A stretch of 64,000 nucleotides of DNA from Nemertoderma westbladi (lineage: Eukaryota; Animalia; Xenacoelomorpha): assembly GCA_032718475.1 (NCBI GenBank), contig JAUCBJ010001957.1:32298-96297 (forward strand), given 5' to 3'. The translations under genes and the position numbers were made by a program. The notes below the pieces were generated by a model that saw only the letters and a list, made by a program, of their open reading frames with translations, did no database searches and was not told where the DNA came from. Positions 8,075-45,255 of this stretch are shown here, piece by piece (position 1 is the stretch's first letter; each line of letters starts with the position of its first letter).

Positions 8075-8349
8075 GCTTCTGTATTGCAGTAGGCAATAAA
8101 GCTGAAGTACCGGTCAGCCGGTCAACCGGTACCTAGTAGGCCTGACTACCTAACCACCCGGACCGGTACCTACAGCAGTACAGGTACAGCAGTATTATTC
8201 GATTTGATAATTATATACCGGTAGGCCTTAATATTGAATCAGGGAGGGCCCGCCCTGGTTTTTTATTGAGATTTTACTTATTTCTGTCAGTTTTATTTAT
8301 TTGTAGGCCAATATTGAGCAGAAGGCGTGTAAGCCTGCTCAGATTGTAC

Positions 8350-11453: not shown

Positions 11454-11809
11454 TGTAATAATTTGTTGTATAGGTTATAGTCATGATCACTATAATGGTT
11501 ACAGTGAGTAGAGTATATGATTAGTATAAAGTGATTTAATAATTGGTTTGTAAACGAGTGTGTATGTAGTGAGAAGTTATCCAGCTGTGATGATTTGGAT
11601 GAGAGAATATGTATAGGAGAGGGGTGGTGAGGAAAGGGGTTTTTATGTAGATTATTGGTGTAAACGATTGGATATAGATAGAGTAAAAGATATATTATAA
11701 TTGTTTTGTGTATATTATATGTATTGTATCAATTATTGTGTATTTATATTATATTCTATCTTAAAAATAACTGAAAGCATTTTAAATATTTCGAAATAAA
11801 ACGATTACA
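11454..11809 (+). repeat. 5' LTR (356 bp) of the nested gypsy
   Basis: Direct repeat of 16180-16531. Confidence 0.95.
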
Positions 11810-11825
11810 AGCTATCACCGCAATT

Positions 11826-12596
11826 ATGTCATTAAAGTTAAATCAAATCATACGTCCGTTTAGTGGTGATGACAAAACTGTTAATTTTAACGAATGGATG
11901 AAGAAATTTCTATTAGTCGCGAAAACTCAGAAATGGGAACAGTTGGAAAATCACCTGCCATTGTTGTTGGAGGGGTCAGCATTCACGGTGTATGACCAAT
12001 TATCAGATGAAGCCAAAGGAAATATAGATAGTATCGTAAGCACGTTGACCACCGCATTTTCGTTGACACCAACACAAGCATATAAAGCTTTTACGAAACG
12101 TATGTGGTCTCCGGATGAAGCTGTTGAAGTGTACCTGTCGGACTTGAAACGGTTAATTTTGCTAACTGGAATCAAACCATCGGACATTGAGCGTATTCAA
12201 CCAATAATAAAAAGTCAATTTGTTAGCGGATTACCCAATGACCTCAGTAGTAAACTAGTTACAATGAATGCGGTTGAAAGTGAATTGATGAGTTTAGAAG
12301 AATTAGTGACGAAAGCGAGACGTATCATCGCAGATCGAAAGTGCGATGACGGTATAGGAATTATCGGTGCTGTTGGGGAACGCCGCCGTCCTTATCAGCA
12401 CCCACATAATGATGGTGATCGTAGTAACAGAGCTACAGCGTCGTTTATCTGTTACAATTGTGGGAAACCGGGACATATTTCGTCACAATGTCCCTCAGAG
12501 AGAAAAACTGTCAAATGTTACCGCTGCTCTGGTTATGGCCATATTGCGAGAAATTGCGGCACTAAGGAATCGGGAAACGCGAATGGGGGGTTGTAG
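11826..12596 (+). CDS. gag: gag with two CCHC zinc knuckles
   Basis: CYNCGKPGHISSQC and CYRCSGYGHIARNC; G-GGA-AAC slippery heptamer at 12572-12578 leads into an open -1 frame. Confidence 0.92.
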   Translation: MSLKLNQIIRPFSGDDKTVNFNEWMKKFLLVAKTQKWEQLENHLPLLLEGSAFTVYDQLSDEAKGNIDSIVSTLTTAFSLTPTQAYKAFTKRMWSPDEAVEVYLSDLKRLILLTGIKPSDIERIQPIIKSQFVSGLPNDLSSKLVTMNAVESELMSLEELVTKARRIIADRKCDDGIGIIGAVGERRRPYQHPHNDGDRSNRATASFICYNCGKPGHISSQCPSERKTVKCYRCSGYGHIARNCGTKESGNANGGL

Positions 12597-15500
12597 GGGT
12601 CGCCGCTTTAACTTCCTCCCGCGATTTGTTGCCAAGATGTTCGGCGAATATTTCATCAACAGACGGATCAGCTAAGTATATTTGTAGAGTAGGTGTTGAC
12701 TCTTATTGTTCAAAGACTATTGTATCATCAGGTTTTCTGTATGGTAAATCTGAATTTATATTTTCTAATGCCAATTGTTCAGAGACTTTTATGATGTTAA
12801 ACGGTACCAAAATTTATACTGTAGGGAAGATTTCAATTTATTTGCATAATTTACCTGGTATTGTTGGAGGGTTTTGTTTTGATGCATGGGTAGTAAACGG
12901 ATGTGATATATTTGATGTTGATGTTTTATTGGGAATCGATGCAATTGTGTGTTTGGGTGGTGTGAAGATACATTCATCTGATTGTATATCTGTTTCGTCA
13001 ATTGAATTTTTAGGATGTGGATCAAATAATTTACGTCCAAATTATTGTGGTGCACTGACATCAAATAGTGATAATGATAAAGTTAAGTCAGATAGTACAA
13101 ATTCTAGTGGAGACAATAATGAGCTAAATTCAAATACCGCAAGTTTCTTTTATCATGATAACGGTGATATCACCATCACTGAAAGTGATTTCGTAGTAAA
13201 GTTTGATAGTTTATCAAAGTTGTGGACCGTAAATTGGGTGTGGAAGAATAATAAGCCCCCAATTCATAAAGTTGGCAGTGGTATTGGTGATTACAATATA
13301 AAGTTATCAGATTCACATAACACCATGTTTGAGAATGAAATTCAAGTTTGGTTGACAAATGGGTTTATTGTAGAATATGACCCGATTGAACACGGTGAAA
13401 TTGAATGTGTGTTACCGTTAATGCCTGTGGTCCAGGAACACAAGATCACAACTCCTGTGAGACCTGTATTAGATTACTCAATGTTGAATAGTTGCTTGGT
13501 GAGTTTTCCAGGACAACAAATGGGAATATGTAATAATAAATTGCGAAACTGGCGACAGCGTTCATCAAATAGTACGATTATAGATATTAAAAAAGCATAT
13601 TTACAGATAAGAGTTGCTCCACATTTGTTGAAATATCAAGCACTTTTATACAAAGATACTATTTATATAAAATGACACGAATGGGGTTTGGATTAGAGAT
13701 TGCAAGAAAAGTTTTAGAAACTGTGATTGAGTTCATCTTTAGTGTTAGCAAATTTCCCGAAAATGCAGTAGATTTCTATGTGGATGATGTCTATTGTGAT
13801 GAGAATTTGGTATCTGCAAGTTCAGTGGAAATTGCTTTGAACAATTACGGTTTACCCACAAAACCCCCTACAAGTATCAAAGAAAATGACGTTTTGGGCT
13901 TACATGTATTCGAAGCAAATTCTGAGTTGTGTTGGAAGCGACGTAACAAAGGTGATCTTATACCAGATTTATTTAGCATGACTCGAAGAGGTCTACATTC
14001 ATGGACTGGTAAGGTAACTGGCCTATATCCCGTATGCAGTTGGTTACGATTAGCCTGCAGTTGGTTGAAACGACAATGTATAGGAGATTGGGATAGTCCA
14101 GTTGACTCATGGATATTAAAATTGGTGAAAGTTACATGGGAGAGCATATGTAATAACGATCCAGTATGTGGAGTATGGAATGTAAATACTCTTAATGGAA
14201 ATTGTGTGATGTGGTGTGATGCTAGTGACATTGCTAGAGGAGTTCTTCTAGAAGTCGATGGTAGAATAATTGAGGATGCTGCTTGGCTACGAAAGAAAAA
14301 TGAATCAAAAGCTCATATCAATGTGGTGGAATTAAATAGCGTGGTCGATGGAATCAATCTCGCAATAGAGTGGAATATTAAACGATTCACATTATGTTCA
14401 GATTCACAAATTGTGTGCAGGTGGGTTGAAGCAACTCTGAAAAATATACATCGAATTCATGTCGGGGGAATGTATATGAATTTGGTAAAACGTCGTTTAG
14501 AACTGTTGCTAGAGTTAGTACAGTTATATGGTTTAGATGTTGAGGTAAAGTGGGTGAAATCTGAACAAAACTTGTCTGATAAACTAACGAGACTACCCAG
14601 AGGTTGGAAAGAGTCTGCCACGGTAAATCAACCTGAAATCGAGACATGTAATACGGATAAGTGTTCGGGAATCGGTGCTGTAATGTACCATAACGATAAA
14701 GAACTATATTGTGGAATTAAATTAGAGCATATAAGAAGAGATCAAATTCAAGACAAAGATATAAACATAATGCTAAGTGATCCTTCACATATCTCAAAAA
14801 CAACAAACTCATACAAAAATGTTAGATCTCAGTTAATGGTGTATAGCGGAATGTTAGTTCGCAAAGTGAAAGTTCCTCCAAACGATTTATTAAATGTTCC
14901 AGTAATTCCAAGTAGTTTAGTCAACGAAGCTATTAAGAATGTCCACGATTCTTATGGTCATCCATGCAGTGAAACTACAAGAGAAATAATCAGGCGGCAA
15001 GGTTATTTCCCCAATATGATGTCGCAATGTCAGAAATTCGTTAAAAGTTGTGAAAGGTGTTCATTATCCGATCCTAAAAAACCAGACGATATTAACCCAA
15101 CAACCCAAATGGTAATACCTGATCGTCCATGGCAAGTGGTTCAGATTGATACCATGAAAATAACTGGTGATATACACTTTGTAGGGTTACTGGCTATGTT
15201 TGATGTATTAACAAAGTATGTTGAAGTAGAACTTTTGAAAGATTATACTAAAGAGACTGTTGTGTCCAAGTTGCTGAAGATATGCCGACGATGGGGTCCC
15301 CCCGAGGTGATACGTTGCGATTCTGGTACTGAGTTATGGAATTCCATGTCGAAAGCATTATATAACTCTTTTAATATTATTGTTAGACGCGGAGCAGTGA
15401 GACATCCAAGAAGTCAGGGAGCAGTAGAACGTTTTAACAGATCATTTTTAACATTGGTACGAAAAACGTTAGAACGAAGTACAGATTGGGCTGTAGAATT

Positions 15501-16122
15501 GGATCAATTGTTATATTTCTATCGTCACAGACCTACGACTACAACTGCCATGAGTCCTACAAAAGCGATGTGTGGTTGGGATTGTTGTTCTAGAAATATC
15601 GATAAGAAATCTGGGTCATCATGGTCCCAAGGTCTAAATCCTTCTTTAGTTGATACTCTGGAAGAGTGTATGTCAAAATTAGATGGAATAGACATTTCAA
15701 CACCACAAATCTTTGCCACTGGAGATTTGGTGTATTTATTACGTGAAGATAGGTCGCCTAAACACATGACACAATGGACAAAGGGATGGACAGTGACTGA
15801 TATTATAAACTCAACAACAGTACGAATATCTAATACCAATAAGGAGATCAAAGACAAATTTGTAAACATTGATATAATAAAACACGCAGTAGAAGTAAAT
15901 ATTGATGACCGTTTGGAAAAAGCAAAGATTAAAGAGGATGATAATATAATAAAATCCGATGACAGCGATGATTTCTTAGAATTTGAATGTGGAGAGTTTG
16001 ATCAAAGCGATAACAGCAACCAAAATACTGATAATGACGAAAATGAAGATGCAGTAATACCACGACGATCTACACGTGTGAGACGTCCTGTTGATCTGTA
16101 TGGAAATCCAAAACGTTATTGA
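12572..16122 (+). pseudogene. pol: pol of the nested gypsy, with one 2-bp frameshift near 13665
   Basis: PR-like VDSYCSKT; RT PVLDY...DIKKAYLQI...RMGFGL...YVDD; RH WCDASD...HINVVELNSV...SDS...SDKLTR; IN HDSYGH...CERC, QIDT, CDSG, VERFNR. Confidence 0.9.
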
Positions 16123-16179
16123 TGATGTTACTGAGGGGGATGTAATAAATATGATAGACGGGGTTCTATCAGAGGGGGA

Positions 16180-16531
16180 TGTAATAATTTGTTGTATAGG
16201 TTATAGTCATGATCACTATAATGGTTACAGTGAGTAGAGTATATGATTAGTATAAAGTGATTTAATAATTGGTTTGTAAACGAGTGTGTATGTAGTGAGA
16301 AGTTATCCAGCTGTGATGATTTGGATGAGAGAATATGTATAGGAGAGGGGTGGTGAGGAAAGGGGTTTTTATGTAGATTATTGGTGTAAACGATTGGATA
16401 TAGAGTAAAAGATATATTATAATTGTTTTGTGTATATTATATGTATTGTATCAATTATTGTGTATTTATATTATATTCTATCTTAAAAATAACTGAAAGC
16501 ATTTTAAATATTTCGAAATAAAACGATTACA
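16180..16531 (+). repeat. 3' LTR (352 bp) of the nested gypsy
   Basis: Direct repeat of 11454-11809, preceded by a PPT. Confidence 0.95.
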
Positions 16532-17484
16532 CGAGTGAATGATACTCTGGAATCTGTGGTTTGTGTGTGGACGATCAGTGGCAGTTTGCTTGAGCTTTCT
16601 GTTGCTGTGGGTACGTGGTATACGTGAGTGTATGTATGGCCACTGCGAGTGAGTATGGGAAACCTTGCCGGTTGGTTCAGTCGCCGCTGGTTATTAGTAG
16701 GACCATATCTTTACTGCGCCCCAGCATATTTTGTGCACACAAAGTTATTTTGCCCTGACGGCAAAATAAGGTACTCTCGGCTCTTTTATTAGTCGATACA
16801 ATTTTGTCCCCTCTGATTTTGTCACCGATTTGTCTTTCCCGATTATGTCCTCTGTGTGTGCATGGTATGCGTCAGATTTGTGTTTACCGTTATGTACTTG
16901 ATTTCGTGAGCATCTATTGAGTACACGTGTACAGTGACTGGTAAGTGGTGACTTGTTCTTAGCTTTAAGCTAGACAGTATTGTTTGCGGAACCGACTTCC
17001 CCTCAATACTGCCGGCGAGGCGGGTGAAAACGTGTCAAAATTCCATGTTGGGTAGCGCAAGCCCACTTGGGACAAGACCGTCGGTTTGGCTCAAGGGCGA
17101 CCTTTATGCTCGATCGCTATCGACTGGTCCACCCGCCGGTTGACTCTCTGAGTTGGCTCAATGTACAGTCAGGCCACAGTAAGTTGACAGTAGCCGACCA
17201 CCTGGCTACACCGATGAGCTGTGCCGGTGTGATCGGGGGATTGAAAATTGAACCCGGGAAGCATCGGGCTACCCTCCGGCCTGGTCTGATAAAAACGGAG
17301 TCAGACTGGCCCCAAGGGTGGTGGGACAGCGTCCGCCTCGTGGGTGCGCCTCGGAGAGGAGCCCAGAAGGACGCAAGCGTTATCAAGTTCGAGAAAGAAT
17401 TCTAAGAATCAGACTAATCCTATCGGCCTTTGAGGAGGCTTCGAAAAGAAGACAAGACACGTCGTTGCAAGTTGCCGTAAAGAC

Positions 17485-20400
17485 TTGGTTACAGTGGGTG
17501 AGTCTCCAAGTTCAAAGAACTGCCCTGTGGAAATCTCAGTTAGCTCAACCCTTGGAGAATCAACAGACACCACCTTTTCCCAAGTGGAAAGTGAAGCGAC
17601 AGCAGAGAAACCGCATAAGAGGGATGCTATTGACATCTATCTGTCAGACTATCAACGCTTTGTAGGTGACGAAGAGTTGAGGAGACGGCTGGATGGACTT
17701 AGCCCTAATAGTGAAGGAGCCAAGCTTGTGTTGGACGCAATCGATGCGGATATGAGAGCTGCGAACCAAGCTAAATTTGATGAACGCCTCCGCATCGCTA
17801 GAGTCCAAGAAGAACAAGTAAAGAAAAAACATATAGAAGACAGAAAGACAGCGGCAGTGGCAGCAGCAGTGGCAGAAGCGGAAAGAAAGGCGGCAGTGGC
17901 AGCGGCCGAAGCGGAAAGAAAGGCGGTAGTGGCAGCGGCAGAGGCAGTGGCAGAAGCAGAACGGAGGGCATCTGAAGAAACAACCCAACTAGAGTTGGAA
18001 AATCTTCAAGAGAATCAAGACTGCATAAATAAACAGTTAACAGCTAGTCAAATGCAGATGATGAGTCGATCTACTCCCAAAAGACAGGGATATACATCAT
18101 CTGAGGAAGGCGATACCACCGATCCTGAAGGCGGAGGAAATCGATCTCGCCTAAGCAGACGTAGAAGAATGTCCCACCGTCAGAAATTGCCTGATTTGCC
18201 CCCAACTGTTAGAAGGCAACTAGCTAGCACAGACTTAGTAGTACAGAACCCACAGACCAAATAATTAAAATAGAAAGACTCCCTACTATAGTAGATGAGC
18301 CTGAAATTATTAGGCCTGTTCTCGAAGCCACCCCTTTGGTGATAGAGACACCTGTACTCCCAGAACTTACCTCTAAATTCCCTCTGCACAGCACTAAGCT
18401 ACCTGTGCCCAGCAGAACAGCCCATGAGACAGTTCATGTCCTGGACTCCGAGCGAAATATTAATGATTTGTCGCCCGTTGTCCCTCGTCCGCCCGCTACA
18501 ACGTTGGCGGCTCCCGCTTCGGCGGTCGAGTGGGTGGATGAGAGACGGCGGGGGATGGATCTCCTGCTCGGGCAGATGCAGGAGACTGTTAAGCAGTTCA
18601 AGGGCACAGTAAGGGAAAGTAGGTTAGAGTTGCAAGAAGTGCAGCAAAGTATCGCGTTAGAACGCGATAAATTAGTAAATACACAAAAGGGTATACCACC
18701 ACCCCCGGTAACAATGTGTCAACCTGTTAGGTCTGAAGTATCTCATGCGCAAGGTGTGGAGCCTACACGTATCTATACTGCTAGCGAAGTAGAAACTCCT
18801 ATAGTGAACCCTATTAAGGGTAATTATAAACCTGTTGACAATGATATTCCCTATAGACCTGATCATAATCCGAGAAATTTATATACCGATAACTCGATAT
18901 TAAATAACACGATGGCCCAAGAAAGTTTTATGCGTCAAATGGCTAGAACCGAAGCCCGTCAAGCGGTAAAGGTGGGAGAGATAGTCAAGTTCAATGGAGA
19001 TGAGATGAAATGGTTACCTTTTAATGAATATTATAAAGATAACATACAGAACTCTGTGCTATCTAACGGAGAGAAACTTAGATTCCTCATCGAGTGCTTG
19101 GAAGGATCTCCCAAGTTAATGGCGTTAAAGTTTATTGGACATCCAGACGGATTAAGACAAGTTTGGGATACACTAAACATCAGGTATGGTAATAGGAATA
19201 ACATAGCTAAATATTTGTATGCAAAATTAGTAGCGCCCCGAAAGTTCATTAGCAGCGGGATAATAGAGTTTTCCGATGAGATTCAAGAGATCTGTAGACA
19301 ATTAGATTGGTTAGGTAAGTCTCATGAATATCAGAGTTCTATGGTTATTGGAGCCGTGGCTTCTACTTTACCGAAGGGTGGAGTAGGTACACGCTGGGAT
19401 AAGAAAGTGTTATATATGATGGAACAATAACGACGAGACCCTACCATGGCTGATCTCATGTCATTCTTAGATGGAGAAGTGAAATTACAGCTCCTAAGGC
19501 AGTCCAGAGAGAAGACACCGGAAAACAAGGTAAGTGAGAAACCCGTTTCTAGGAGAAAAGTAACACCAGTGTGTTATACCGACGACGGCGAAAGCCAGAC
19601 TTCTCAAGGAGAGGATAGCGGGAAAGACACTGAAAGATCTTATTATGTCAATAAAACGCCTAAAGAACAGGTAAGTAAATTCAAGTCTCGAACCAATGAC
19701 AGGAGAGAACAGGTAAGAAAAACTCCTCCTACGTCTCCTAAGAGAATTCAGGTAAGAAAGCCCGAAGAAAGAACGAGTGTGCACAATGTTATTCAAAATA
19801 AGGTAAGTAACATCAAACCGAAATGTGTGCTATGTGACGGGACCCACCGTTTGAATATGTGTGATGAATTCCTAAAGAAATCATTAATGGAGAGACGGGA
19901 AGTCATGTGGGATAAGCGGTTGTGTTATAATTGCCTCAGACAAGGACACCAAAGGCGAACCTGTTACTCCGACACAAGGTGTGCAAAGTGCGATGCGAAA
20001 CATCATATCTTGTTGCACACAGAATTCGAACGAAACAGTCCGAGTCAGGTAAGTGATTCCGAACTACATGTCCAATTCAGTGATGTGAACGACACTGACC
20101 AAAGTTCTGAGATGGAAGGATTCTATACGGATGAATTCTCCGACGAAGATGAATCCTGTTACATGATAAATACCGCAGTGTATCGAGCACTTACGTATGA
20201 AAAAGACACAGACAGCGACCTCACCCTAACTACTTCTGATCGACAACCATCTTGGAAAGCGCCAACTTCCAATGTAGGAATCCGAGAATTTCCTGTAGTA
20301 CAGTTAAGGGTCCACGGACCTAAAAGGAGTTATATAGTGAACGCCCTTCTTGACTCCGGTAGTACAGGAACATTCATCGACAAAGAACTAGCCGAAGACA

Positions 20401-23400
20401 TCTTTGCTGGACAACCCAAGTTCCGAACTAAGCTAAACATGTCAGGAATTATGCAGGTTTGGAAATCTACAGTAATTTAGCGGATTATTATGTAGGTGCA
20501 TTGTCCACCCCCCAGGATGAACTAGGAGAACATAGTATAAGGTCAGTAAAGATGGTGGCGATAAAGAACTTCGCTACCAGCCAAGTGGAACCTTATAACT
20601 GGGATGAGGACGATTTCACCCCGCAGCTTGAAATACCTAGATTCGCCACCGATTACCCTGGAGTGCAAATACTCATCGGTCAAAACGCGCATGAAGCGCT
20701 CGAGACATTGGAGAAACGGCCTGCTCAACCGCAACCACTACAAGCTTATGAGGGAAGAACTAGAGTGGGTTGGTACTTTACTGGCCCTTCCCGTAGAACT
20801 CTCATGGAAAGATTACCGAAAGATCAGGTATATCAAGTAAGAGAATGGGAAGTTGAGAGCAGTGAGTTAGACGATCCAACTGAGGGAACACCATACTCCT
20901 CAGATAATGACGATGTCCACCAACTCTTCGACGAGGAGAATACCATTGATCTCCTTAAGGTAAACGAGACTTGGCAAAACCAAGTGAACTTATGTCAGCT
21001 CCTTCGTCCATCAGAACGAGACGACTATAACGACGAACTGAATGACGTCATTGAACGTTGTAATGCCAAGACTCGGGATGAACACGCCGTACGATTCTTT
21101 ACTCAAGAGGCTGTAGAGCCCAATTCCTACGATAAGGCCCTATCGGTAGAAGAAGAAAGAGCCAAGCAGATCCAAGAGACAACTACACGTTCTCTTAAAG
21201 ATCAAGGTAGATATGAAATCGGTCTACCTTTCCGAAAGCGAGAACCAAAGTTCATAAACAACAGACCCTTGGCGGAGAAAAGAATTGCTCAACTACATCG
21301 ACGCCTTACGGCAAATTCTTCAGCTAAAGAAATGTATCAAACGCAGTTGAAGAAATTTATTAGCAAGGGATATGCGGAGCGAGTACCGGAAGAAACACCT
21401 ATAACTGAGAGAACATATTATTTAACTCACCATTACGTTCCCAAACCCGGTAAACCCCATGAGGTACGAGTAGTGTTTGACGGCTCCGCCCTCTACATGG
21501 GCCAATCCCTTAATTCCGAATTGTTACCCGGACCCAACTTACTCCAATCCTTGTTGGGAATACTCTTAAGATTAAGACAATATTCAATCGCTTTTGCCTC
21601 TGATATAGAAGGCATGTTCTTACAAGTCAAGGCGCTGGATAGGGATCGAGATAGCCTACGATTTCTGTGGTGGCCTGAAGGAGACCTCAACCAGAAACCG
21701 GTGGAGTACTGGATGACCATCCAGGCTTTTGGGATAATCTCAAGCCCTTCAAACGCCTGTTCAGTGGTGCGCACCACTGCGGATGACAATCGAGAAGCCT
21801 TCTCTAAAGAGGTGATTGACAACATCAAACGGGATATATACATGGACGACAATCTAAAGTCCCTTCCATCAGTCGAAGAAGCCATTGATGTCGCTAAAGG
21901 AACGGTAGAGTGCTTAAAAAGAGGTGGATTTCGATTAACTAAATTCACCAGCAACTCCCGTGAGTTTCTGGAGTCGATCCCGGTAGAAGATCGAGGAGCG
22001 AAAGACCTAGATCTAATCAAAGATGATCTTCCAGAAACCAAGACACTTGGTTTGAAATGGGACACAGAGAGAGATATCCTGTTTTTCCAGCTAAAACAGC
22101 GAGATAATCCAGTTCGGACTAAATGGATTTGTTTAAGTATCCTGAGCACTTATTTCGATCCATTGGGATTTATTAGCCCAGTTATATTGATTGCTCGGAG
22201 TTTAGTACAACAAATGTGGCTTGAAAACCACTCATGGGACGATCCACTTAAGGGAGAATTATTAAAGAAGTGGATGAAATGGGAAGATTCTCTACCAGCC
22301 ATTGAGAACTTTATAATTTCCCGTTCATATTTTGGTCATGTTATTCCTATCAACTCCATGTGTTTGGAGACGCCAGCGATATGGGAATAGGTATAGTAGC
22401 CTACCTAAGAGTGGAAACTCCGGATGGAATCAAAGTCGCCTTGGTTACCTCTAAGGCATTGATAAACAACAAGTTGAAAGTTCCTCAAGAGGAGTTAAAA
22501 GCGGCTCTATACGCTACAGCCATCGGCCGGAATGTAACAGAACAGATCGACTATCCACTGGAGAAAACTGTCTATTGGACCGATGCTTTACTCGTGTTGG
22601 AGTATATAACCAATGAAGTCTGTCAGTTCAGTGTCTTCGTTACCAACAGAGTAGCCATTATACTTAGTCGCACAAAGATGGATCAATGGAGACATTGCCC
22701 CGGAACGATCAATCCAGCAGACATCGCCTCCAGGGGAGCTACTCCACAAGAACTGGTAGATACTCCAGACTGGTTAGGTGGACCCGAATTCCTCTACAAA
22801 GAAGAAGAAGAATGGCCTCCTCATCTTACTACGGCAGAGATCAGACAGGCCAAGGGAGCGGAGAAAGTCAAACCTAAAACTCGGGCGAGTAAATCGAAGT
22901 TATTTAAACCTATGGTAGATCTGTCTGTACTACATACTTCCGGAGACGACGCTTTGGATCAGAGGCCCACAGCCATAAATAAGTCTGTTGTGGAAATCCG
23001 TGAGAAGGATTGGAAATCTGGAATACCAGACGTCTCGCAAGGACTCTCACCTCTCCTGCAGAGAACGATATATCACTACAGTTCCTGGAATCGGCTCTGT
23101 AAGGCCGTTACATATTTAAAAAGATGTTTTCACCATCACTACTCCGGGATGAAGACCAATAGTGATACCGCTCTGCTGACATCGGTGCAGGTCCATGTTG
23201 TTAAAGATCTTCCCAAATATAAGATATCCGACAGGTTTCTGAAGGAGAAGATCAGTTATCAGGAGCATGAAGAAACCAACAAGCAGATGCTGAGACTCCT
23301 GCAATGCTATGATGATTCCGATAAGTATTTCCTGTTGTTGAGAAATCCACAGATGCGCTTAAGGGATCGTTTCTCTAGCACAATGATAGATGGGTTGATA

Positions 23401-24714
23401 CGTGTTGGCGGAAGATTAACGAATGCTCCATTATCCTTTGACACTAAGTTTCCCATACTCATTAGAAATCTTGAAATACAAGTCAAGATGATTGTAGATG
23501 TTCACAGCAAACTTTATCATGCTGGTAGAGAACGAGTTCTTAGCGAAATTCGAACTCGCTATTATTTTTATAAACCCCGTAGAGCTCTGAACCAAGTTCT
23601 TAGGAACTGCATACCCTGTAGGAAAGCATTCAGTAGGCCTTTAACACAGCGAGAGGCAGAATTACCTAGGGAACGAGTAAGCTTCTATGAACCACCCTTT
23701 ACTAATACCGGTGTAGATTTATTTGGCCCTATTGAAGTATATCGTGCTAGGACTATAGTCAAGAGATGGTGTGTCATCTTTGTTTGTATGACTTGTAGAG
23801 CTATCCATCTCGATATGGTGAACGATTTATCTACCAACAGCTTCCTATTAAGCTTACGACGACAGATCGCTCGCTTTGGAACTAGTAACACGATAAGATC
23901 TGATAAGGGAACAAACTTCATTGGTGCCAACAATGAAATCAAAGCTTACGTCAAAGATTGGAACCAAAGACAGGTGGACGATCAGCTAAGGGTAACAGCG
24001 TCTAGCTGGACCTTTAACGCCGCCGACACCCCTTGGTGGGGAGGAAGTTGGGAGAGATTAATTAGAAGCGTGAAGACCGCATTTCACTTTATAGTGCCGT
24101 GCCGCGCGTATCTCACCGACGAACTTTTGCGGACGTTAATGGAGGAAATCGCCGCCTATCTCAACGAGAGACCGCTTATGCCAGTCTCATCGAGTCCCGA
24201 TTCCCTGGAAGCACTAACACCCGCGCACTTCCTACTGAAGAAACCTGTAGCCATGCTCCCACAATCGGAAATCACAGACGGAGACGAATACTGCCGGCAA
24301 ACTTGGCAACTCATGCAGTTGTTATCCCGTTGTTTCGCTGACCATTTCGAAAAACACTATCTGCCCACACTACAACTTCGAACGAAGTGGTTTGCGCAGC
24401 AAGAAAACGTCAGCGCTGGAGACATGGTCCTTATTGTGGATTCAGATCTTCCACGTAAGCGGTGGCAGACAGGTCGTATCATCGAGACTCACATCTCGGA
24501 TGACGGTTTGGTGCGATCGGTAGAACTCGTCGTCATGCGACGTAACTTCAAGAAACTGGGAATTGTCTTCGAGACACAGCAGCTCAATCGCCCAGTTGGT
24601 CGTTTATGTTTACTGGAAAGAGACAGAGAACTCTCCGGAAACTATGGAAGACAAGATACTCTTCCCACGACCACCTCCCTAATCCAACAAACATCTAGGG
24701 ACTCCCCAGCTTAG
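17485..24714 (+). pseudogene. BEL/Pao gag-pol polyprotein with three frameshifts and one in-frame stop
   Basis: KFNGD..KW..F...LSNGEKLRFL..CLEG (DUF1759-like), triple Cys/His box CVLC..H...CYNCL..GH...C..C...HHILLH, protease ALLDSGS, RT RVVFDGS/DIEGMFLQV/YMDD, RH FGDAS/NPADIASRG, IN TGVDLFGP/SDKGTNF/GGSWERLIRSVK and a BEL-type C-terminus (GLVRSVEL...RPVGRLCLLE). Confidence 0.95.
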
Positions 24715-26352: not shown

Positions 26353-29241
26353 ATGACTGAGTTGATAGAAGATGATCTTGGTATCAGGGAGCGATATACT
26401 CTACCTTTACAAGCGTTTGTCGATAGCTTGATACGCGGCGACGCTGGTCCAACTACTACGGAGAATGATGGTCGTTATATCGAACCGCCAATGTCCCCGG
26501 AGCAACTTACGCGCGAATTGGATTATAGAAAGTTCACCGCTCGCTATACGCATCGTAATGGTACGTATATGGACTTCTTAACTACTGGCCATCCTATCGA
26601 TTTACACGATACGGACGATGTAGACACCGAAAGGGAAATGGTTTTATTTAAATATCATACCCAGCGGAGTCGGAACGATAAACCGAGAATAGAACACGAG
26701 AACTCTATTCGAAACAGACTCGAAAGGGAAGACGTTGAAGAGCCGGATAAACGCAGCGACTTCAACGATTATCTGGAATTCCTGAGAGAGACATATCTCA
26801 ATATTGCCAGCCAACAAAATCTCGAAACTCGATATCCTCAAGGTATACATCATGATCCTATGATAGAACTCAAACGACTCTATTTCACTATGATGTATCT
26901 TACCGCCGATTGACCGCTACCTGTCGTCCCAGATAGCTTCGAACAGATGGAGGAATATTGTAAAACTGGAGAACGATCACCCGCATTTCCCCTGCAGGAC
27001 GTGCGTCTTTGGTATTACTGCGACGAATGCCCTAGACCCAATCAGCAAACGGAAAGACATAAACATCCGCGGAGACGTTGCGCTAAACACAGTTTTACAC
27101 GATATACTTATGGGAGTTTCGAGCGAAACCTGTTCGACGTATCACCTACGGTCGCTCGGCTCAAACGATCCTTGAATAAACCAATGATCAGAGTTCCGGA
27201 ATACTCAGTCAGACCTCCTCATTCCTCAGTTAGACCTCAGACTCTTGATCCTAATAGTATCACGGATCCTCCCGAACTGTACTCACTGTTCAAAGATCTA
27301 GTGTTACCCGAACAGTTGATCGGTGGCACTCCGGTAGTGGGCTCGCTAGATATTCGTCAACCCTACCTAGCCGGATTAGGACGCGGTCATCTAATATCGC
27401 CGTTTAACCCGTACAACCGTCCCGGCTTCACCCCGATACAACCCGTTACGGAAGTCGAAGAGAGTGTCGTACGAAACGCTTTAGACGCTATTCGGCAGAA
27501 AATCGGAAAGGGAACTTACGATTATTTGGAGAAACGTAAATTGCAGCAACAAGTCCAAGCGGTGAAAGAATTAGCTTTACCCCAGTTCGATAGAGAAATA
27601 CAAAATCTCGAGGAGGACATCGAACGTGGACGAACCTACTCTTTACAAGAGTTCCTAGATGAGTGTTTACAACAACAAGCGGAGGAAAATCAGCTCGAGG
27701 AGAGACATATAGAACTAGATGAGAGAGAAGAAGCAGCTTTAGCCCAGCCAGAAGCTCAAATCCTTATAACAGATCTCTATTCTAAAACCATTATCCATCC
27801 TTCGATGGTTCCTCATTTCGGAGACAAACTCTTCACCACGGCACAGCCTCAACCGGTTGATATCAACCTAAGATCTCGAGATCTTATCTCTGACGCTCCC
27901 ATGTTGCAACGTCCGCTCATCGAATCCGCTCGTGTCGATGGTATACTCGTTGAACCTCCGGACAATAGAGCGGATCTTGTCCGTCGCATGGTACACGATG
28001 TTAACATACGCGCTAAACCTTTACCGGACTCGTTTTATGGGATCAAAGATCACCCTTATTACGTCAATCTAACACAATATTACATGGTAAAACCGGAAGA
28101 TCCTACACATAGTCTGAGGTTTCTACCACTAATAAATCCTCTCGATCTTGTCGAACTCGAACAACTGCAGAAACATCTGGATCAGTTAGTTAAAGTAAAC
28201 TCATTTCGAAAACCATATAATGTTTCCAGAATAGAGAAAGAAACAATACCTCCGTATAATCTTGATGGATTCATCAAAACTCGATTAGTACACTGGAATC
28301 TTTACGTGTTATTCGAGGAGGAAAGAATACAACGATATGGAGATGTGGAAACATATACTACACAATACTTAAAGTATAGAGATCTACCTAATGCTAGCGA
28401 ATGCGCTACCTTGTGGCATCCAGTGGGAATGACTCTCGAAAACGCCACTAAAGAGTGGAACGAGACTCTTAACGTTATCGAGATGTATGGAGTTGTCACT
28501 TACGATAACGAAGGTAGCGTTCCGGTTGGAGAACTGGGAACTACGCGAATGATACACATACGAGGACTCGCTGGTTCTACCCACATATTTACTCGAGCGT
28601 GTTCCGATGTGATTGATTATTCTTTTGAGACTCTTACTGAGACACAAAAGAAACTCAGACATGGACAATTCGAACTCGCGCAGCGTTACGTCACCGACAC
28701 CGAGCGCAAACCGGCCATGGGTATCGATGGATCGATGTTACCCCAGCCCGTGCTCGAGATGTTGTTTAACGAAAGAATCCTTAAAATCGGCTCAGCTGTT
28801 TATGGAGATCTCCAAAACGACTTTCGGAACATGGAAAACATTCCATACCCTTTCGTTGATACTCAGCTGATTGCTCCCTGGGCAGAAGGCCGAGGTTTCT
28901 TCCGCACTATGTATGCCAATACACCCAGCGGCATTACTAAAGTACAACGAACCTCTATCGGACATCTTGCCTTTCAAGAATACGGATGGAATTTCAAGGT
29001 TGGAAATCCTACCAATTACCAACAAGTATATGGAGATCATTATTCTCGTTTATACTTTGATGGACCATTGACCGCACCTGGCGCCGTATATAGCTTTATG
29101 AGTGTTCCACTTCGTCCCTCCTTAGCTATATACACGATCTTTGAAAACGCAGCACTTGCCGGTTGGCTAGCCGTGCAGTTGTGCAGTCGTACCATGTATC
29201 ATTACTGTAGGCCTATTATGATTAATGACAATAATTATTAG
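26353..29241 (+). pseudogene. Accessory ORF (~960 codons, one in-frame TGA at 26911) with a C-terminal DEDDy/WRN-like 3'-5' exonuclease domain
   Basis: ORFs 26353-26913 and 26947-29241 share a frame. ExoI VVTYDNEG (28504/28510), ExoII LPQPVLEMLFNERILKIGSAVYGD (28807), FVDTQ and ExoIII-like PLRPSLAIYTIFE (29131/29143). The last ~15 codons come from LTR sequence. Confidence 0.75.
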
Positions 29242-30999
29242 ATTAGCACAACTCACTAAAAATAAAATTCAATATCTCAATGACACACGGTCTGAAAATA
29301 TGACAGACTACAGCAAGCATACTGCCTGACAGACAAATCCGAAACCTGGAAACACCGCGGTGGTACTGTAATGATAGGCCTACAGGTACAGAGACACTGT
29401 CAGACTGTTGACTTGACAATGATCTCCTATCTTATCTGGACCAATCAGGAAACAGTATTCGCCTACGCGTATGTATAGGCTTATGTCAAATCGCTCAATG
29501 TAATGTATAGATACGTGGATACGTACTTACATACGTGTAAAAGTTTAACCCTATGTTTTCTGGTTTTATGCTATTTTAGTTGTTAGTATTCCATTAGGAA
29601 CATATATCTGCATATGATATTGGACAGTTCAGTAGGGAACATACCCTTAAATAAGCTCCAAAAGTGGGTTCTTATTTAAGGAAAATGGCTCTTATTTAGG
29701 GGTTTTTGGGCCTTTTTTGGATATTTTTTCGACATAATATGCAAGAACATATGATATTGGACAGTTCAGCAGTTGGATATAGCAGAATAGACATGATATA
29801 GACATACTGCAGTACTGCTGTATTGTAGTGCTGCAGATTTAGACCTGGCCTACCTGAGACTGGCAGACTGGAGGGAGACTTTTGCAACTGCAGCTCAGCT
29901 GTACCAGACTGTCTGTATCATTACCGTACCGCATACCGGCAGACCGTCAAAGCGTACCCCGTACTACTGTACAGCTGTACTACAGTCAGACAGTACTGCG
30001 GGCTGGCGGGGTTCCTTCCGTTCCTGATCAGCTGATATGACAGTACAGCAGTATCATACCAGGATACTTGACACTGCTGTACTGTTGACTGGTTGACTGT
30101 GTAGGGTAGGCCTTTTACTGCTGTACTGTAATGCCGGCACAGCATTCTTAAAAATGCAGCTGCAATGCAGCATGCCTGTAAAAGCTTTTGCGGAATTAGC
30201 CGGTTATTTTCCCCGTAAAGTACTCTGTAGTTGGTTTAACAGGCATAAAATGCCGTATCCTTACTGTACTGGTGTTTTAGTGGACATAAAAAGCCATTTC
30301 TTCTGTATGTGTACTTTAGCGGACATAATTAGCAATTCTATGTCGCAATACGCGAAATCCAAGAGGAATTCAAGAGGAAACAGTGTAGTTACTATGACGA
30401 CAGCTAACAGCTGAGCTGTACATGTGTAGCTTTTCCTTGTTCTCTGGTGTTTCTTTGTTCGGTCAACCAATCAGAGCGATTCTCCTGCTTTTTGTACAGA
30501 AACCTCCGAGAAATCGCGCAATGCATTATGGGTCAATGTTTATATTTTGTCCTGAGCCCAGAAGACCGGCTTTGGAATCTCTGTGTTTTCAGTCTTTAGC
30601 CCAACATTAGTAGGCTTAATTATAGAACGTATATCTGTTATCAAACAAACCTTACTTACTTAACAATTCATACCATACCAAATCACATATCATAACAAGT
30701 CATACCTTAACATTGTACTGCTATTTACTGTCGGTTATTCATTATATCAGTTGATGGAATATTATTATATTTGGAATACCGATAAATAATTACAAAACCC
30801 TCAATCTTCTTGATATACTGAAGGTAAGAGAGACCGGTTACATATAACGATTGCGACTTACATTAAAGTGGTTTTTGAAGTGAATCTAATGCTATTTCAT
30901 AGGCACTACATGTATTGGTTGTTGTTCTCTTTATATGTGACTAAAATTAGTGAAGGTCGGCAGATCGGTGTGCAGCATTGTGCAGTATTGTGTATGATT

Positions 31000-33500
31000 C
31001 CCTGCAAACATTTTACGTTAATTACGCTAATCTAACGTTAGACTTTAGTCTGTTTTAGGTTAGAAAAATAAAGTTATAAAAATAACTTAGAACAAACGTT
31101 TTCTAACGTCTTATAATCGTTTAAAAACTACATGTCTAAAATCAACTAAACCCAAACGTTAAACTGACGTTCAATTTTAACATAGATTTTTAACGTTATT
31201 TTGAAACGTCTGACATTGGTTAAATTTAATCATGTACAAAAATGACTAAACCCAAACGTTAAACAGACGTTGAATTTTAACATCAATTTTTAACGTTATT
31301 TTGAAACGTCTGACATTGGTTAAATTTAATCATGTACAAAAATGACTAAACCCAAACGTTAAACAGACGTTGAATTTTAACATCAATTTTTAACGTTATT
31401 TTGAAACGTCAGACATTGGTTAAATTTAATCATGAACATAAATCACTAAACCCAATATTAAACAAACGTTGAAATTTAACATCGATTTTTAATGTTAATT
31501 TAAAACGTCTGACATTGGTTAAATAGAATCATTCTTGTATTAGAAAATTGTAATGTAATTTAGTCACGTTAATATTTATTGCAACAGGTCCACTGGAATA
31601 TAGTGTTGTAATTATTCAGTGTCATGCAACTATCACTCAAGTTGTACCTTGTGGTCTTACTTTTGTACCTGGGGGGGGGGGGGGGGGGGGGTGTGGTCTT
31701 ACTTTTTTTACCTGGGGGGGGGGGGGTGTCTTACTTTTGTACTAGGGGGTCTTACTTTTGTTTCAGGGTGTCTTACTTTTGTACTTGGCGGGGTCTTACT
31801 TTTGTACCTGGAGGGGTCATACTTGGACTTACTTTTGTACCTGGGGGTCTTACACTACTTTTGTACCTAAGGGGGGGGGGGGGGTGGTATTACTTTTGTA
31901 CCTGCAGGTCTTACTTTTGTTCCAGGGGAGTCTTACCTTTCTACCAGGGGGTCTTACTTTTGTACATGGGGGGGGTGGGCTTACTTTTGTACCTAGAGGG
32001 GTCATACTTTTGTACCAAGGGGGTATTACTTTTGTACCTGGAGGGGTCATACCTTTGTACCTGGGAGGTCTTACTTTTGTACCTGGGGAGGGTCTTACGT
32101 TTGTACCTGGGGGTCTTACGTTTGTACCAGGGGGTCTTACTTTTGTACCTGGGGTGGGTCTTACGTTTGTACCTGGGGGCCTTACGTTTGTACCAGGGGG
32201 TCTTACTTTTGTACCAGGGGGATTTACTTTTGTACCAGGGCGGGGAAGGGGGGGTCTTACATTTGTAGGGTCTTGGGTCTTTATTTTGTACTCCCATAAT
32301 ATAACTACTGTAACTGCAATATTAATTAGTTTACATGTTCTTCAATATATTATTGTGATGTGCAAAATTATTGAATTTATAACGATGCAATATTCAATAT
32401 TTCTTTCAATTTTGGTATTATTTTTTTATACTGTAGTTTTGTTTATTTCTCATATTTTTGTTTATTGAAGTTTATTTAGCCAATAAATAGTACAGTACGT
32501 TACGCCGATTTATATTACTGATATACTGTAAATTTAGTATTGAATTATTTTTTATTCCGGGCAAAATTTGTTAAATAAGTTCATTTTCGACTGCCAATTA
32601 TTTATATAAAAACGGCACTACGTTTATTCAGTGTGAGTGGCTAAATAATATAAACACCGTTCGTTACCATCGTTAAATGATTGGTGAGGTTTGATATACA
32701 GTGTACAGTAGTTAATACAAACAATAAATTGGTTTCATTCTACCCCCAGCGTCTGCAAAAAACGTAAGTCTAACGTTAAATGACGTCAGACTCTAAATAG
32801 TTATTAATTTCCTATAATTAAATTTTAAATTATCAATTAAATTGTTTGATAACTAATAAATTTAAATAATTTAATCAAATGATTTATCTAACGTAGAGGT
32901 CAAATAGGTATGTGATAGTATTTTATATAAATCTAAACAAATTTCTTAGCAATTGATCAAAAGTCATCATATTTCTTCTCAGAAATAATCCGATATTTAT
33001 TTTGCCTAAATGCATTGAAGGTTCCACTCCTAAGGTGTAGGTGTAGGGGCGTAGGCGTAGGCTGTGTAGGTTAGGGTTAGGTCCCCCTCAGTCCCTTGCA
33101 GGTCCACCAAGTAACTGCCGCTGTGGTCCATGAAGTAAATCTCAAATGTGAACTTTTTTATTCTTTTGAATCAAAAATAACGTATTAGTGACGTATTTTT
33201 TTAACGTATTATTGATGTATTTTTTTAACGTATTTATTTAACGTAGTAACCCCGGCCAATAATACGTTAATTTAACGTAATGGTACGTTCATAAATAACG
33301 TTCATAATATACGGCTGTTAACGTTATTTTCAGACATGAGTTAATTAGTATGATTTGAGTAAAATTTAAGTATATTTTTAACGTAGTAACCCCGGCCAAT
33401 AATACGTTAATTTAACGTAAGGGCACGTTAAAAAATAACGTTGGAATGGTAGAATATTAACGTAAATTAACGTTAAATTAACGTCAAAATGTTTGCAGGG
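31000..33500. mobile_element. Non-autonomous CACTA/EnSpm-type DNA transposon inserted in the 3' LTR
   Basis: TIRs CCCTGCAAACATTTT / AAAATGTTTGCAGGG; 2-bp TSD TT confirmed by the empty site TATGATTGTGAC in the 5' LTR; AACGT(T)-rich subterminal repeats and 120-bp tandem units at ~31140-31520. Confidence 0.92.
31640..32270. repeat. G-rich minisatellite (GGGGTCTTACTTTTGTACCTG-like, ~21-24 bp) inside the MITE
   Basis: About 25 degenerate tandem units. Confidence 0.9.
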
Positions 33501-34637
33501 TTGTGACTGATAACAAAGCATCTCCTAAAGAATGCGCTATATACGTGAATCCATAGCCATCCCGTTGTGTCTAGTTTAAGTCATAACTCTGTTTACATAT
33601 CTAGAGCGCCACGTCCTAAAGGAACTGTTAATATTTCCCGAAAGTGAATAATATTTGTCAGAGATTATATATTACGATCAGTCGAATAATACAGTAGGCC
33701 TACACCGCAATAAGGTTAGGCTTCCGAATCCAGTCTCCCGGGTATATCCAGCGGGTGAATGGTCGCGCATAGACTGGCTTCGGCTAATGTAGTGTATCAA
33801 ATACTCGTCATAGGCTAAAGACGATTTATTATCTAGAAGATATCCCAATTTGGCAGGTTAAACTGCTAAAGGTCTAAAAGCGCGAACAATGCCGATACTA
33901 GTAGCTGTACTGCATACTGTACTGTAGTAAGCCTACCTGCCTACTGTAGTAGTGCACAGACTGACAGTTCATCAGTTTTTTGAATTTTTTGGTCGATTAC
34001 CCTACCTGCCTACTGCCCTATCTGCTTATATATGCGCGGATACCCGTCTGCCCGTGCTGCGCTGCCGTCGTGCTGTCGTTGCGAACAACCTGACAACATC
34101 CAGGATCCAGTCTGACACTGACAGACTGACATTTAAACTTAGGCTGTCTGGCTGTTCGCGTTCGCGTTCGGCCTTATGACAACTTAAAGTCACTGAAAGT
34201 GCTGCACTGCTACAGACAGACAGACAGACTGACAGTCTGACAGTGCTGCAGTGACAGACCTAGCCTGCTTTTTTTTTCAAACTTTTGGCCTATCCCAGTA
34301 TCCAGCTATCAATTCAGCAGTTTACTGGTAGCAATTAGCCCTAAATAATAAAATACCGGTCAGCCGGTATATATCAGTATATGATATAACAATATATAGG
34401 CCTAATACAGTAATATATTTATATAGGGCTTTAGCAGTTTAGGGGAGGGTCTATCAGTCTATTCTATATCTGTATATTACTGTATTACCGGTACTGCAGT
34501 CAGGCAGTACCAGTACTCTGGCAGTCTGGTACTGTTATACTGTAATAATACTGTAAGTAATATCAACTTCTAAATTCCAAACATACGGTACTTTATTTCT
34601 AGACAGACAGTCATAACTAGAAGTTTAAATAATTAAT

Positions 34638-35966
34638 ATGGCTTCACGCAGTGGTGAGAAAGCCAAGAAGCAACAGGAGAAGTTCCAGGCAGTTCTTTCT
34701 GACCTTCTGAAGGAGGATGAGAATAAATACTGCTGCGATTGCGATGCCAAGGGACCGCGATGGGCCTCGTGTAATCTCGGCATATTCGTCTGCATCCGTT
34801 GCGCCGGAATCCACAGAAATTTAGGCGTTCACATCTCGCGCGTGAAGTCGGTAAATCTAGACCAGTGGACCGTCGATCAAATTCACGCGATGCAACTCTG
34901 GGGCAACTCAAAAGCGAAAGCGGTTTATGAGGGGAATCTACCATCGGACTACAGACGACCGCAAACTGATTCAGCGTTAGAATATTTCATTCGTCAGAAA
35001 TATGAAAAGAAATGTTATTGCAACAAAGAATTAATGGCTGACATTGTTAGTAAAGGTTTCGATTCTTCTAGTACTAACAGCGAGCCGTCTGGGGCAGCGA
35101 ATTTCAGTCAACAAACCCGCACAAAGAAACCAACAGACACAGTCATTCCAACCATCGCCGCTGCGAATACCAAACTAACCAAACCCGCAACGCGCCAGAA
35201 CCTTTCGACTGGAAGTAAACCGACCCGGGCCGCTAAACAGGACGAGGGGCGACAAGAGACTGTTAATAGCGTAGCTAGTAGTGTAGAGCACGATCTACTG
35301 GGGTTGGGTAGCGATTTGGACCAGCCAAACGCGAATCTTATGGATGGTACGATGGCGAACGCGCACGCCACTAATCTCACGCTGTTGGGCGGGTTGACAA
35401 TGAGTCCGACGCCGCAGCTGACGCCCCAGTCGTCGGCATTCCAGTTGCAACCCGAACCGGCCCCGTTGCAACCGAACCCAGTGGCCGCAGTTCGCGCGGA
35501 TGATAACCTGCTTCTGGGGGAACCCGACGACGCTTCCAAGAAGTCGAAGGATTCTATAATGTCGTTGTACGGCTCGACTAGTTCTCTTCCGGCTATGTCC
35601 TCGACTTCTATGTATTGCCACGCCCTCCAACCCGCTCCCGTTGCCATGCCGATGTACGGAGCCCAACCGATGATGGTGCAACCCCAGTTCCCGATGGGAG
35701 TCCCGGGTTCCCAACCGATCCGATACGGACAACCGATGGGGTCTGTCGGGTCTCATATCAATATGAACCAACCCGCGTATAATCCCGCCAACATGGTGCG
35801 TTACCCCCATCCCCCCCACCAGCAGCCAATAGGGGCCGTCCCCCCGTCCGGACAACCAATGGCAGGCAATCCCTCGGGATTTACCGGAGTCCCCTGGGTG
35901 GATCCCATTCCGGGTAGTACCTACTACAGTGGCGGACACACCCTCAGTAACACCCTGTGGAAATAA
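34638..35966 (+). CDS. SMAP1: Stromal membrane-associated protein (SMAP1/2-type ArfGAP), single-exon CDS
   Basis: ArfGAP zinc finger [48 protein letters not shown] clathrin-box-like motif, SKDSIMSLY, Met/Pro-rich tail and C-terminal [10 protein letters not shown]. Confidence 0.93.
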
Positions 35967-37769: not shown

Positions 37770-38668
37770 TGTGGTTATGAAACTGATGAGATATTTTATT
37801 GGTATAATATTCCACGGTTCATCACTCTGCTGTAGGTCTAAAGGATAAAGGAATGTTTATGACACCGGCCCAACAATATAAATTAATTATTTATTTATAT
37901 AATTATGCAATGTTAAATTGCTGGTTAATTTTAACCATGTAAGTCATCCGATATTCTGATTACCGATATTTATTGATTTATTTTTATTTCATTCTATTCC
38001 ATGTGAAGTACAGCGGGGTACAGACAGTCTGGCATTGGCAAATAATTATCATTTATAAAAGAGATGCTGCAGAGTTGATTAGTGAAATTTAATATTTTAG
38101 TAAAACAGAAGGTAATTTTTTTTGTAATTTCACCTTTGTCGCACTCTTGCTTTATCCTTCTAGGATAAACTCTGCATACCCTTTATTCTCCAGTTTGTGT
38201 TATAGTCAACTCAAGTTGGAGGTCTTCTCATCTCTCATCCAGTTTATTTTGTTTAGGTATATATCCTTATTAAGGCTTTTTACTTGTTAAATTAATTTAT
38301 TAAAATAATTTTATTATAATTTAGACCAATTAATTTTACGTCGGTGATGTAAATTTCACTTAGACTACTTCTTAAACTGCTGTGCTTCACATGGTATTAG
38401 TTTAGTAGACCTTGGAGGCTTTGTAGTGAGGCCAGTAGGCTGTCAATGACGACAGTCTAAACTGGAAATGGTGGGAGTTAGTTTGCGGTATGGTTTATGG
38501 TTTCTTTTATTAATATCGTCATAATCAGATCATTTCACACATAAATATTATTTTATGAATATATTACCTTGTTATTAATTAATATTTGAGTTGTTATTAC
38601 GACTCATTATCTTTGTGATTATTATATTTAAGTTATTCCTTAACGTTGATTTTAACAAAACTCTTTTA

Positions 38669-39290
38669 GGGTCTTACATAGCGATTTTGGGGTCTTACAT
38701 AACCATTGTGGGGTCTTACATAACGATTGTGGGGTCTTACATAACTATTGTGGGGTCTTACATAACGATTGTGGGGTCTTACATAACGATTGCGGGTTCT
38801 TACATAACTATTGTGGGGTCTTACATAACAATTGTGGGGTCTTACATAACGATTGTGGGGTCTTACATAACGGTTGTGGGGTCTTACATAACGATTGTGG
38901 GTGTGGGGTCTTACATAACGATTTTGGGATCTTACATAGTGGGGTGTGGGGTCTTGCATAACGATTGTGGGTGTTGGGTCTAACATAACGATTTGGGTGT
39001 GGGGTCTTACATAACGATTTGGGTGTGGGGTCTTACATAACGATTTTGGGGTCTTAATAACGATTGTGGGTGTGGGGTCTTACATAACGATTGTGGGGTC
39101 TTACATAACGATTGTGGGTGTGGGGTCTTGCATAACGATTGTGGGGTCTTACATAGTGGGGTCTTACATAACGATTGTGGGTGTGGGGTCTTGCATAACG
39201 ATTGTGGGGTCTTACATAACGATTGTGGGTGTGGGGTCTTACATAACGATTGTGGGGTCTTCATAACGATTGTGGGGTCTTACTTAACGA
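38669..39290. repeat. 21-bp minisatellite GGGGTCTTACATAACGATTGT (with 27-bp variants)
   Basis: About 27 tandem units. Confidence 0.95.
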
Positions 39291-39469
39291 ATACGGAATC
39301 GTTCGTATTTGTAAGATAAGATTGTATTAATGTTGTATTTAATGCAACAGAAATTAAAGATTGTTATTTGTATTTTACTGGATTGGATCTACTGCGCTTA
39401 TCATTATGTCCGTTTATAACCTATGTACTATAATTGAGAATTCGTTTTCCACTACAGCAACGTCCCACC

Positions 39470-41500: not shown

Positions 41501-41883
41501 GGACTGATGTTCGCTGCTATCTCAGTATCTGCTACATGTCTGTGTGTAACGTAAGTGAGTGGAAAGTAATGACATAGTCAATGCGTCTTGGACATGATGA
41601 CAATTTGGAAATGCCAATGGTTTTGATTGGTGTTGGGTGGGTGGGCGGGAAATTTGAATGTTATACACTTTATATTCCTTTTTTTATTGGAAGTTTGTCA
41701 TTGTCTGACTGACGGTGCAAGTTGCATTTTATATTCGTGTTTGTACTTTGTACTAATCACTAATACTGTAATAATATATTACTGGCGTACAAGAAAGCGG
41801 AACCTACCATACCACGCTACCGGTACCGTCAATCGTATCCTAAACTACCGCGAGCTCGAGGAGGATTAAACTCACCGTACGCG

Positions 41884-44860: not shown

Positions 44861-45255
44861 CATTTTCGGTGGGTGATGTAGGGAATTGAATCCGCTTACA
44901 TTTCCCATGGAGAGCCTATTAAAAGAGGACAGATCCTGAAAAGTTTGGATCCTGTTTCCCGTTGTATGCTTGCAACATTTATTTTAATATCCATAATATT
45001 ATACAGTAAATCAACAACATAGTGCTGTAAAGTTTTGGCGGCAAATTTAAAAGTAAGATTAATCTCATAACTCTCCAAAATGTACCGGTATCTTTACAGC
45101 TCTATGCTCTAGTCCTAGCTCCAAGCTCTGTTATCTTTAAGTACGTTTGTTAACGTAAGTTTGCAAAACCTGTTTGATATATCTGTATATGATATGTCAG
45201 TATGTATGTTAATGTCTGAATGTTGTAATCTGTTGCAATTTTAGTTAAAGACAAA

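Follow-up and report, generated by a model that had tools for sequence, protein, structure and literature searches.

The stretch of Nemertoderma westbladi DNA analysed here (64,000 nucleotides, referred to as the window) contains a long terminal repeat (LTR) retrotransposon, all features of which lie on the forward strand. It is flanked by a 5-nt target-site duplication that is identical on the left (6864-6868) and on the right (33889-33893). Self-comparison and end mapping delimited a 5' LTR of 1194 nt (6869-8062), the 3' LTR occupies 30177-33888, and the TG...CA ends together with the short target duplication are as expected of BEL/Pao LTRs. The two LTRs differ by 7 substitutions over 1187 aligned nt (K2P 0.006). 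A gag and protease region (17434-20480; DUF1759, E 1.3e-11) carries one frame change and one in-frame stop, and pol (20432-24714) is spread over two frames that encode reverse transcriptase with YMDD at 21839, RNase H, and integrase, with Pfam matches to PF05380 (E 2.3e-15 and 8e-13) and DUF5641 (E 1.1e-19). The domain order is PR-RT-RH-IN, and PF05380, here the RNase H, is described as a marker of Bel/Pao (PMC3985635). The combination of DUF1759, PF05380, and DUF5641 therefore identifies the element as BEL/Pao; an earlier note, made from the sequence alone, had named it a BEL element, which its Pfam domains and its LTRs with a 5-bp target duplication corroborate. With its gag-pol reading frame shifted three times and also hit by an in-frame stop, this copy is dead and cannot work.

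A 2.5-kb terminal-inverted-repeat element (31000-33500), which has internal tandem repeats and a 2-nt duplication, lies within the 3' LTR and divides it. Another LTR element occupies a nested position at 11454-16531, with LTRs of ~355 nt, gag knuckles, and the order RT-RNase H-integrase; no matching target duplication, TGG primer site, or self-complement was found for it. Between the 5' LTR and this nested element, a 241-aa ORF without a Pfam match (10312-11037) may be one more accessory gene, located ahead of gag. Elsewhere in the window, long uninterrupted host-like ORFs at 34629-35966, 41764-43899, and 45229-46788 (ArfGAP, ABC transporter, G-patch) represent either intron-poor genes or retrocopies, and long tandem arrays lie at 48400-54800, 57370-58710, and 38610-39310 (units of ~30, 49, and 21 nt).

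A candidate self-primer

Directly after the 5' LTR lies a primer-binding site (8063-8084) that does not begin with the TGG of tRNA-type sites, and no tRNA genes were found within the 64-kb window. The first 12 nt of the site are complementary to the core (7310-7321) of a candidate self-primer at 7297-7321 inside the LTR. This 12-nt complementarity was equalled in 1 of 2000 resampled LTRs and extends into a duplex of 12 bp, a 2x2 loop, and 7 bp (-21.6 kcal/mol), which was found in both the minimum-energy and the centroid folds of 7300-8120, although the z-score of the whole region was only -1.5. The self-complementary primer site that had been proposed does exist, as a 12-nt core with an extended duplex. 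The pairing of 8063-8084 reaches 7 bp beyond the core on its upstream side, and 7269 shows an initiator-like motif, so the primer may lie inside the transcript instead of forming its extreme 5' end. Just beyond the end of the primer, contigs differ in length (joints from 30642). I found no report of self-priming in BEL elements in the literature searched, which included the available part of PMC3601003 and left subscription journals and Repbase aside.

ORF3 and its missing end

A third ORF, ORF3, is situated 1.6 kb downstream of gag-pol and separate from it, between pol and the 3' LTR, so the env position previously assigned to it holds. It starts with an ATG at 26353, and its element-derived part comprises 947 codons (26353-29193), covered by contigs from all four runs and interrupted by a sole internal stop at 26911-26913, through which residue numbers are counted here. 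All exonuclease-like motifs were recovered where they had first been seen, in a single frame: VVTYDNEG (28492-28515), LPQPVLEML (28738-28764), NERILKIG (28768-28791), AVYGD (28795-28809), FVDTQ (28852-28866), and the ExoIII-region motif PLRPSLAIYTIFE (29107-29145). Sequence comparison places them in a likely WRN/EXD-like exonuclease domain at 28486-29193, with D718, E720, D819, Y927, and E931 as its candidate catalytic residues.

Further upstream, the N-terminus is acidic, and a Cys/His cluster (27019-27090; C223, C226, H236, H238, C243, H246, with CDEC at 27019-27030) is present by sequence as described before; it has no Pfam match and is a candidate metal site only. The Glu/Gln-rich coiled coil of the earlier note was retained in part: residues 386-470 (27508-27762) are 35% Glu+Gln and hold the top two heptad-score windows, and the segment is predicted to be helical or coiled-coil from this composition and a crude heptad score only. 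Nothing of transmembrane strength was found in ORF3 (best 19-residue Kyte-Doolittle mean 1.33). By hydropathy alone it has neither signal peptide nor anchor, in keeping with the claim that it is not env, while a terminal anchor is possible, the native C-terminus being missing from this copy. ORF3 is a non-env accessory gene encoded by the element.

The ORF end originally given, 29241, was wrong by 16 codons. A 983-nt duplicate of the left flank (29194-30176) occupies the place where ORF3 should end and the polypurine tract should lie; self-comparison traced it to the original left flank at 5886-6868, to which it is identical at 979 of 983 nt (4 differences), with 1 nt of homology at the junction. 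Codons 948-963 (29194-29241) are accordingly copied flank, 15 of 15 residues being identical at 5886-5930. Contigs of other copies, in all of runs X1, X3, X4, and X5, depart from the window at ~29173-29195, and contig depth over 29209-29260 was 0, 38.9, 0, and 0 in the four runs, as opposed to at least 1e5 inside the domain (X1, X3). No purine run of 10 nt was found ahead of the 3' LTR. Because of the flank duplicate from 29194, the departure of the contigs, and the missing purine run, this copy must be regarded as lacking both the polypurine tract and the native 3' end of ORF3. None of the listed contigs crosses the junction 29193/29194, and hence both a real rearrangement and a misjoin are possible. 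Positions 5886 and 29194 were also considered as LTR starts and were rejected on the grounds of no target duplication and a collapse of depth there.

Copy support and selection

Contigs were taken from runs X1, X3, X4, and X5 (4 of the 7 listed runs). Over 781 nt of the domain, 3139 (X1), 1019 (X3), 27 (X4), and 11 (X5) contigs matched at 80-100% identity, which are not independent copies, and summed contig depth does not equal copy number. No bin of low depth occurred between the end of pol and 29180; no single contig running from pol through ORF3 was found.

Among the best-supported 40 variants in the domain (81 further variants stand outside this count), 36 were synonymous compared to a neutral expectation of 23-30%, while the same 40 read in each other forward frame gave only 3 synonymous changes. 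None of the 40 affected the codons of D718, E720, D819, D836, Y927, or E931. Across the whole of ORF3, 10 of the 12 listed variants that segregate among copies were synonymous, and 7 of the 9 listed as private to this copy were nonsynonymous (stop site omitted). At the stop site itself, nearly all contig depth reads another letter in 4 of 4 runs; the internal stop is therefore private to this copy, and the suggestion that the single TGA arose as a change within it was right. The domain is clearly under strong purifying selection, and ORF3 is a real, conserved, and selected gene of a high-copy BEL/Pao family.

Identity of the C-terminal domain

WRN/EXD-type exonucleases act by two-metal 3'-5' catalysis. 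Judging from its sequence, the C-terminal domain of ORF3 probably has their fold (DEDDy-type, PF01612), and it is likely a D-E-D-E, DEDD-like variant rather than a strict DEDDy member. D718, E720, D819, and E931 would hold the two metals, and Y927 would be the 'y' residue.

Direct database searches returned little. Pfam showed no match for the domain at E up to 10, and the HMMER-type check recommended in the earlier note did not reach the cut-off of PF01612. A search of PDB sequences with ORF3 gave no match. A full scan of 1.84 billion representatives returned one homolog, the protein P0001 (E 4e-4), a singleton from ENA that is 31% identical over 112 aa (26-31% overall range) and itself scored 11.9 bits against PF01612 (cut-off 23.6). 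Word-based homolog searches found nothing for the ORF3 region (0 of 971 candidates) or for a two-sequence profile of ORF3 and P0001 (0 of 1911), and with P0001 only itself among 772. In the direct searches the two-sequence profile met nothing but RNase D, at E 2.3. Locus scans of viral contigs, prokaryote genomes, and plasmids found none. Residues 500-560 of P0001 contain tandem CCHC knuckles (HIV nucleocapsid-like matches, best E 1e-4). In a 10-row tree, ORF3 joined only P0001 (95/97) on long branches, a topology that does not reveal where ORF3 came from.

The case for the fold begins with the motifs. For ExoI, D718-x-E720 follows a hydrophobic strand and is in register with P0001, L014, L007, and L011 in an E-INS-i alignment that brings all three motifs into register; other MAFFT runs repeatedly chose a different ExoI register. 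The alternative near residues 752-764 was considered less likely, as it is without D-x-E and helical in a weak model. For ExoII, D819 comes after the LP-helix and K[IV]G and is invariant in alignments A7-A10. For ExoIII, Y927 is present and the acid is Glu (E931) instead of Asp, likewise in P0001, as the earlier note had read it in ORF3. The resulting layout, hydrophobic-D-x-E, then K[IV]G-x4-D, then L-x6-Y-x3-E, appeared in 0 of 20000 shuffles for the ORF3 protein and for P0001 each, using a pattern that was post hoc, relaxed to admit Glu, and matched by 1 of 3 reference exonucleases.

An Atlas language-model search assigned 25 of 30 matches to the PF01612 set for both ORF3 and P0001 (0.91 and 0.93), with 147 and 167 of 256 shared features (typical within a family: 170); PF01612 is annotated on 34% of the members of the matched cluster. 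The two-sequence profile also fished four fungal-type loci, of which the two that were scanned score above the PF01612 cut-off and match WRN (L002 at E 8e-7). This link was discounted as circular because the signal vanishes once the search motif is masked (95/1000, with P0001 receiving no score). Three of these loci (L002, 466-2581; L003, 3303-5267; L004, 477-2592) carry WRN-like exonuclease exons of fungal type, behind which lies a conserved unassigned ORF, and they may possibly be Dada-like transposons.

A fairer test set consisted of exonucleases fished by their own ExoIII motif, of which five were checked and all were PF01612. Of 10 loci from one of the scans, 6 either proved to be something other than exonucleases or had the motif in a different frame, L005 was partial, and L015 and L018 repeat the contig of L014. 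The ORF3 domain was equalled by 0 of 2000 shuffles against L014, 15 of 2000 against a three-sequence profile, and 4 of 2000 against a four-sequence profile; the figures for P0001 were 0 of 2000 on both profiles and 85 of 2000 against L014 alone. Five control stretches gave 6-311 of 500. Profile scores were 1-11 bits, and the pairwise scores of ExoI and ExoIII alone were not above shuffles. The hhalign probability was 7%, and L007 and L011 received no score on the ORF3 and P0001 profile. AlphaFold models were of low confidence (pLDDT 30.6 and 38.5); with the latter, Foldseek returned 0 matches at E 0.001 and VIA a best Z of 4.2, results that speak neither in favour of the fold nor against it. 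Of the idea of a third ORF with a DEDDy domain, the element-encoded non-env ORF and its motifs are established, and the fold is likely.

What the domain may act on

The reading that I favour, with a probability of roughly 0.4, is that the ORF3 exonuclease would trim 3' ends belonging to the element itself, the self-primer being the most plausible target. Element RNA from the LTR (7297-7321) would anneal to the primer site behind the 5' LTR and run on past 7321, where a flush 3' end would be needed; a cut in the unpaired tail would then allow the nuclease to shorten the tail as far as the duplex, leaving an end for reverse transcriptase to extend. The long N-terminal part could tether the enzyme to the particle. 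This role is preferred because the anatomy of the element calls for a 3' end that is flush at 7321, and also because 3'-end processing has been suggested both for the DEDDy ORFs of rotifer elements, there of element RNA (PMC5408684), and for the DEDDy domain of Dada (PMC3706591). The choice of substrate is the weakest inference of the proposal, ORF3 and the primer being linked by the shared element alone, and the link is further weakened because Tf1 makes its primer by RNase H alone (PMC4600332).

An active exonuclease might instead counter host silencing by over-trimming or destroying piRNAs or siRNAs, with the acidic N-terminal part docking on the small-RNA machinery. I consider this a tentative second reading that ranks close behind the trimming of own ends and ahead of a dead domain, another fold, and a host gene, in this order. 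The fold relatives mut-7, EXD1, and Maelstrom act in small-RNA pathways (PMC5408684), DEDDy domains have been captured repeatedly by unrelated elements (PMC5408684, PMC3706591), ORF3 is set apart from gag-pol, and the family is high-copy; but rotifer ORF3s showed no clear link to copy number (PMC5408684).

It is rather unlikely that the domain has the DEDD fold and is catalytically weak or dead, serving, as EXD1 or Maelstrom do, to bind RNA or act as a decoy. Glu in place of the ExoIII Asp, insertions of ~35 and ~25 residues relative to the reference exonucleases, and a branch length of 2.77 would all suit such a module, yet proteins as distant as ORF3 and P0001 have both retained the Tyr and four acidic residues, Asp-to-Glu is a conservative change, and the rotifer ORFs likewise vary at one position (DEED; PMC5408684).

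Less probable still, ORF3 could be a real accessory gene whose exonuclease likeness is limited to the ExoII stretch, in a domain of some other fold. The profile signal comes solely from ~50 residues around ExoII, there is no Pfam match, and both AlphaFold models are of low confidence. These points are countered by the order and spacing of three motifs in two distant proteins (albeit by the post hoc pattern), by the assignment of both to the same family in Atlas, and by a low-confidence model that, with no guide rows at these places, has strands at residues 4-13 and 26-35, as an ExoI at YDNE needs. Lastly, a host gene or one-off capture placed in this copy by rearrangement is scarcely credible, for although this copy is rearranged at 29194 and pol and ORF3 are not joined by a single contig, ORF3 has no intron, its contig cover continues from pol without a low bin, and thousands of diverged contigs cover it as against one or none over the neighbouring flank.

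Returning to the trimming of own 3' ends, its most specific version would be a self-primed BEL/Pao lineage that replaced tRNA priming and uses its own D-E-D-E exonuclease in the env slot to mature the 3' end of the primer, which I regard as unlikely as a whole. If true, it would add a dedicated primer-maturation enzyme and, together with P0001, define a subfamily of mobile-element nucleases. Earlier descriptions of exonuclease cargo in LTR elements did not demonstrate its importance, whereas this family shows purifying selection on the domain. Since this copy has kept the domain motifs intact, the domain could be assayed without repair, and whether the nuclease processes the element's own ends or counters host small RNAs is now testable.

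Comparison with known systems

DEDDy-type cargo is already known from rotifer elements and Dada; the BEL/Pao case is unreported in the literature searched, in which no report of exonuclease cargo in BEL/Pao was found (subscription journals and Repbase lay outside the search). The precedent claimed by the earlier note for rotifers and nematodes stands for rotifers, albeit in Ty3/gypsy-like and Penelope-like elements (PMC5408684), and fails for nematodes: the word 'nematode' is absent from the text of PMC5408684, and the literature searched yielded no nematode LTR exonuclease.

In bdelloid rotifers, a DEDDy ORF3 with predicted activity and the motif DEED is found in the LTR retrotransposons Juno and Vesta and in Athena/Terminon retroelements (PMC5408684). 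Set beside these by published description rather than by sequence, the BEL ORF3 is similarly non-env, located after pol, DEDDy-type, altered at one catalytic position, and of predicted function. It differs in its BEL/Pao host element, in having D-E-D-E in place of DEED, and in its length of 947 or more residues with a Glu/Gln-rich segment, the rotifer ORFs being described as lacking coiled coils. The strong purifying selection on the BEL domain also contrasts with the rotifer ORFs, for which no significant departure from neutrality is reported (PMC5408684). Dada DNA transposons of Laccaria and Ectocarpus share a transposon-borne DEDDy domain (PMC3706591), which in their case sits inside the DDE transposase and is a canonical DEDD.

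With the PF01612 enzymes WRN exonuclease, EXD2, Mut-7, and RNase D, ORF3 has in common the ExoI DxE, LP-helix-K[IV]G-xxxx-D, hydrophobic-D, and L-x6-Y-x3-acid in this order, and it departs from them in the Glu at ExoIII, the two insertions, and the missing Pfam match. As for the primer, Tf1 and Tj1 also possess a primer site that is complementary to their own LTR rather than to a tRNA (PMC4600332); these are Ty3/gypsy elements primed by the 5' end of their mRNA, whereas the pairing in the BEL element extends upstream of the 12-mer.
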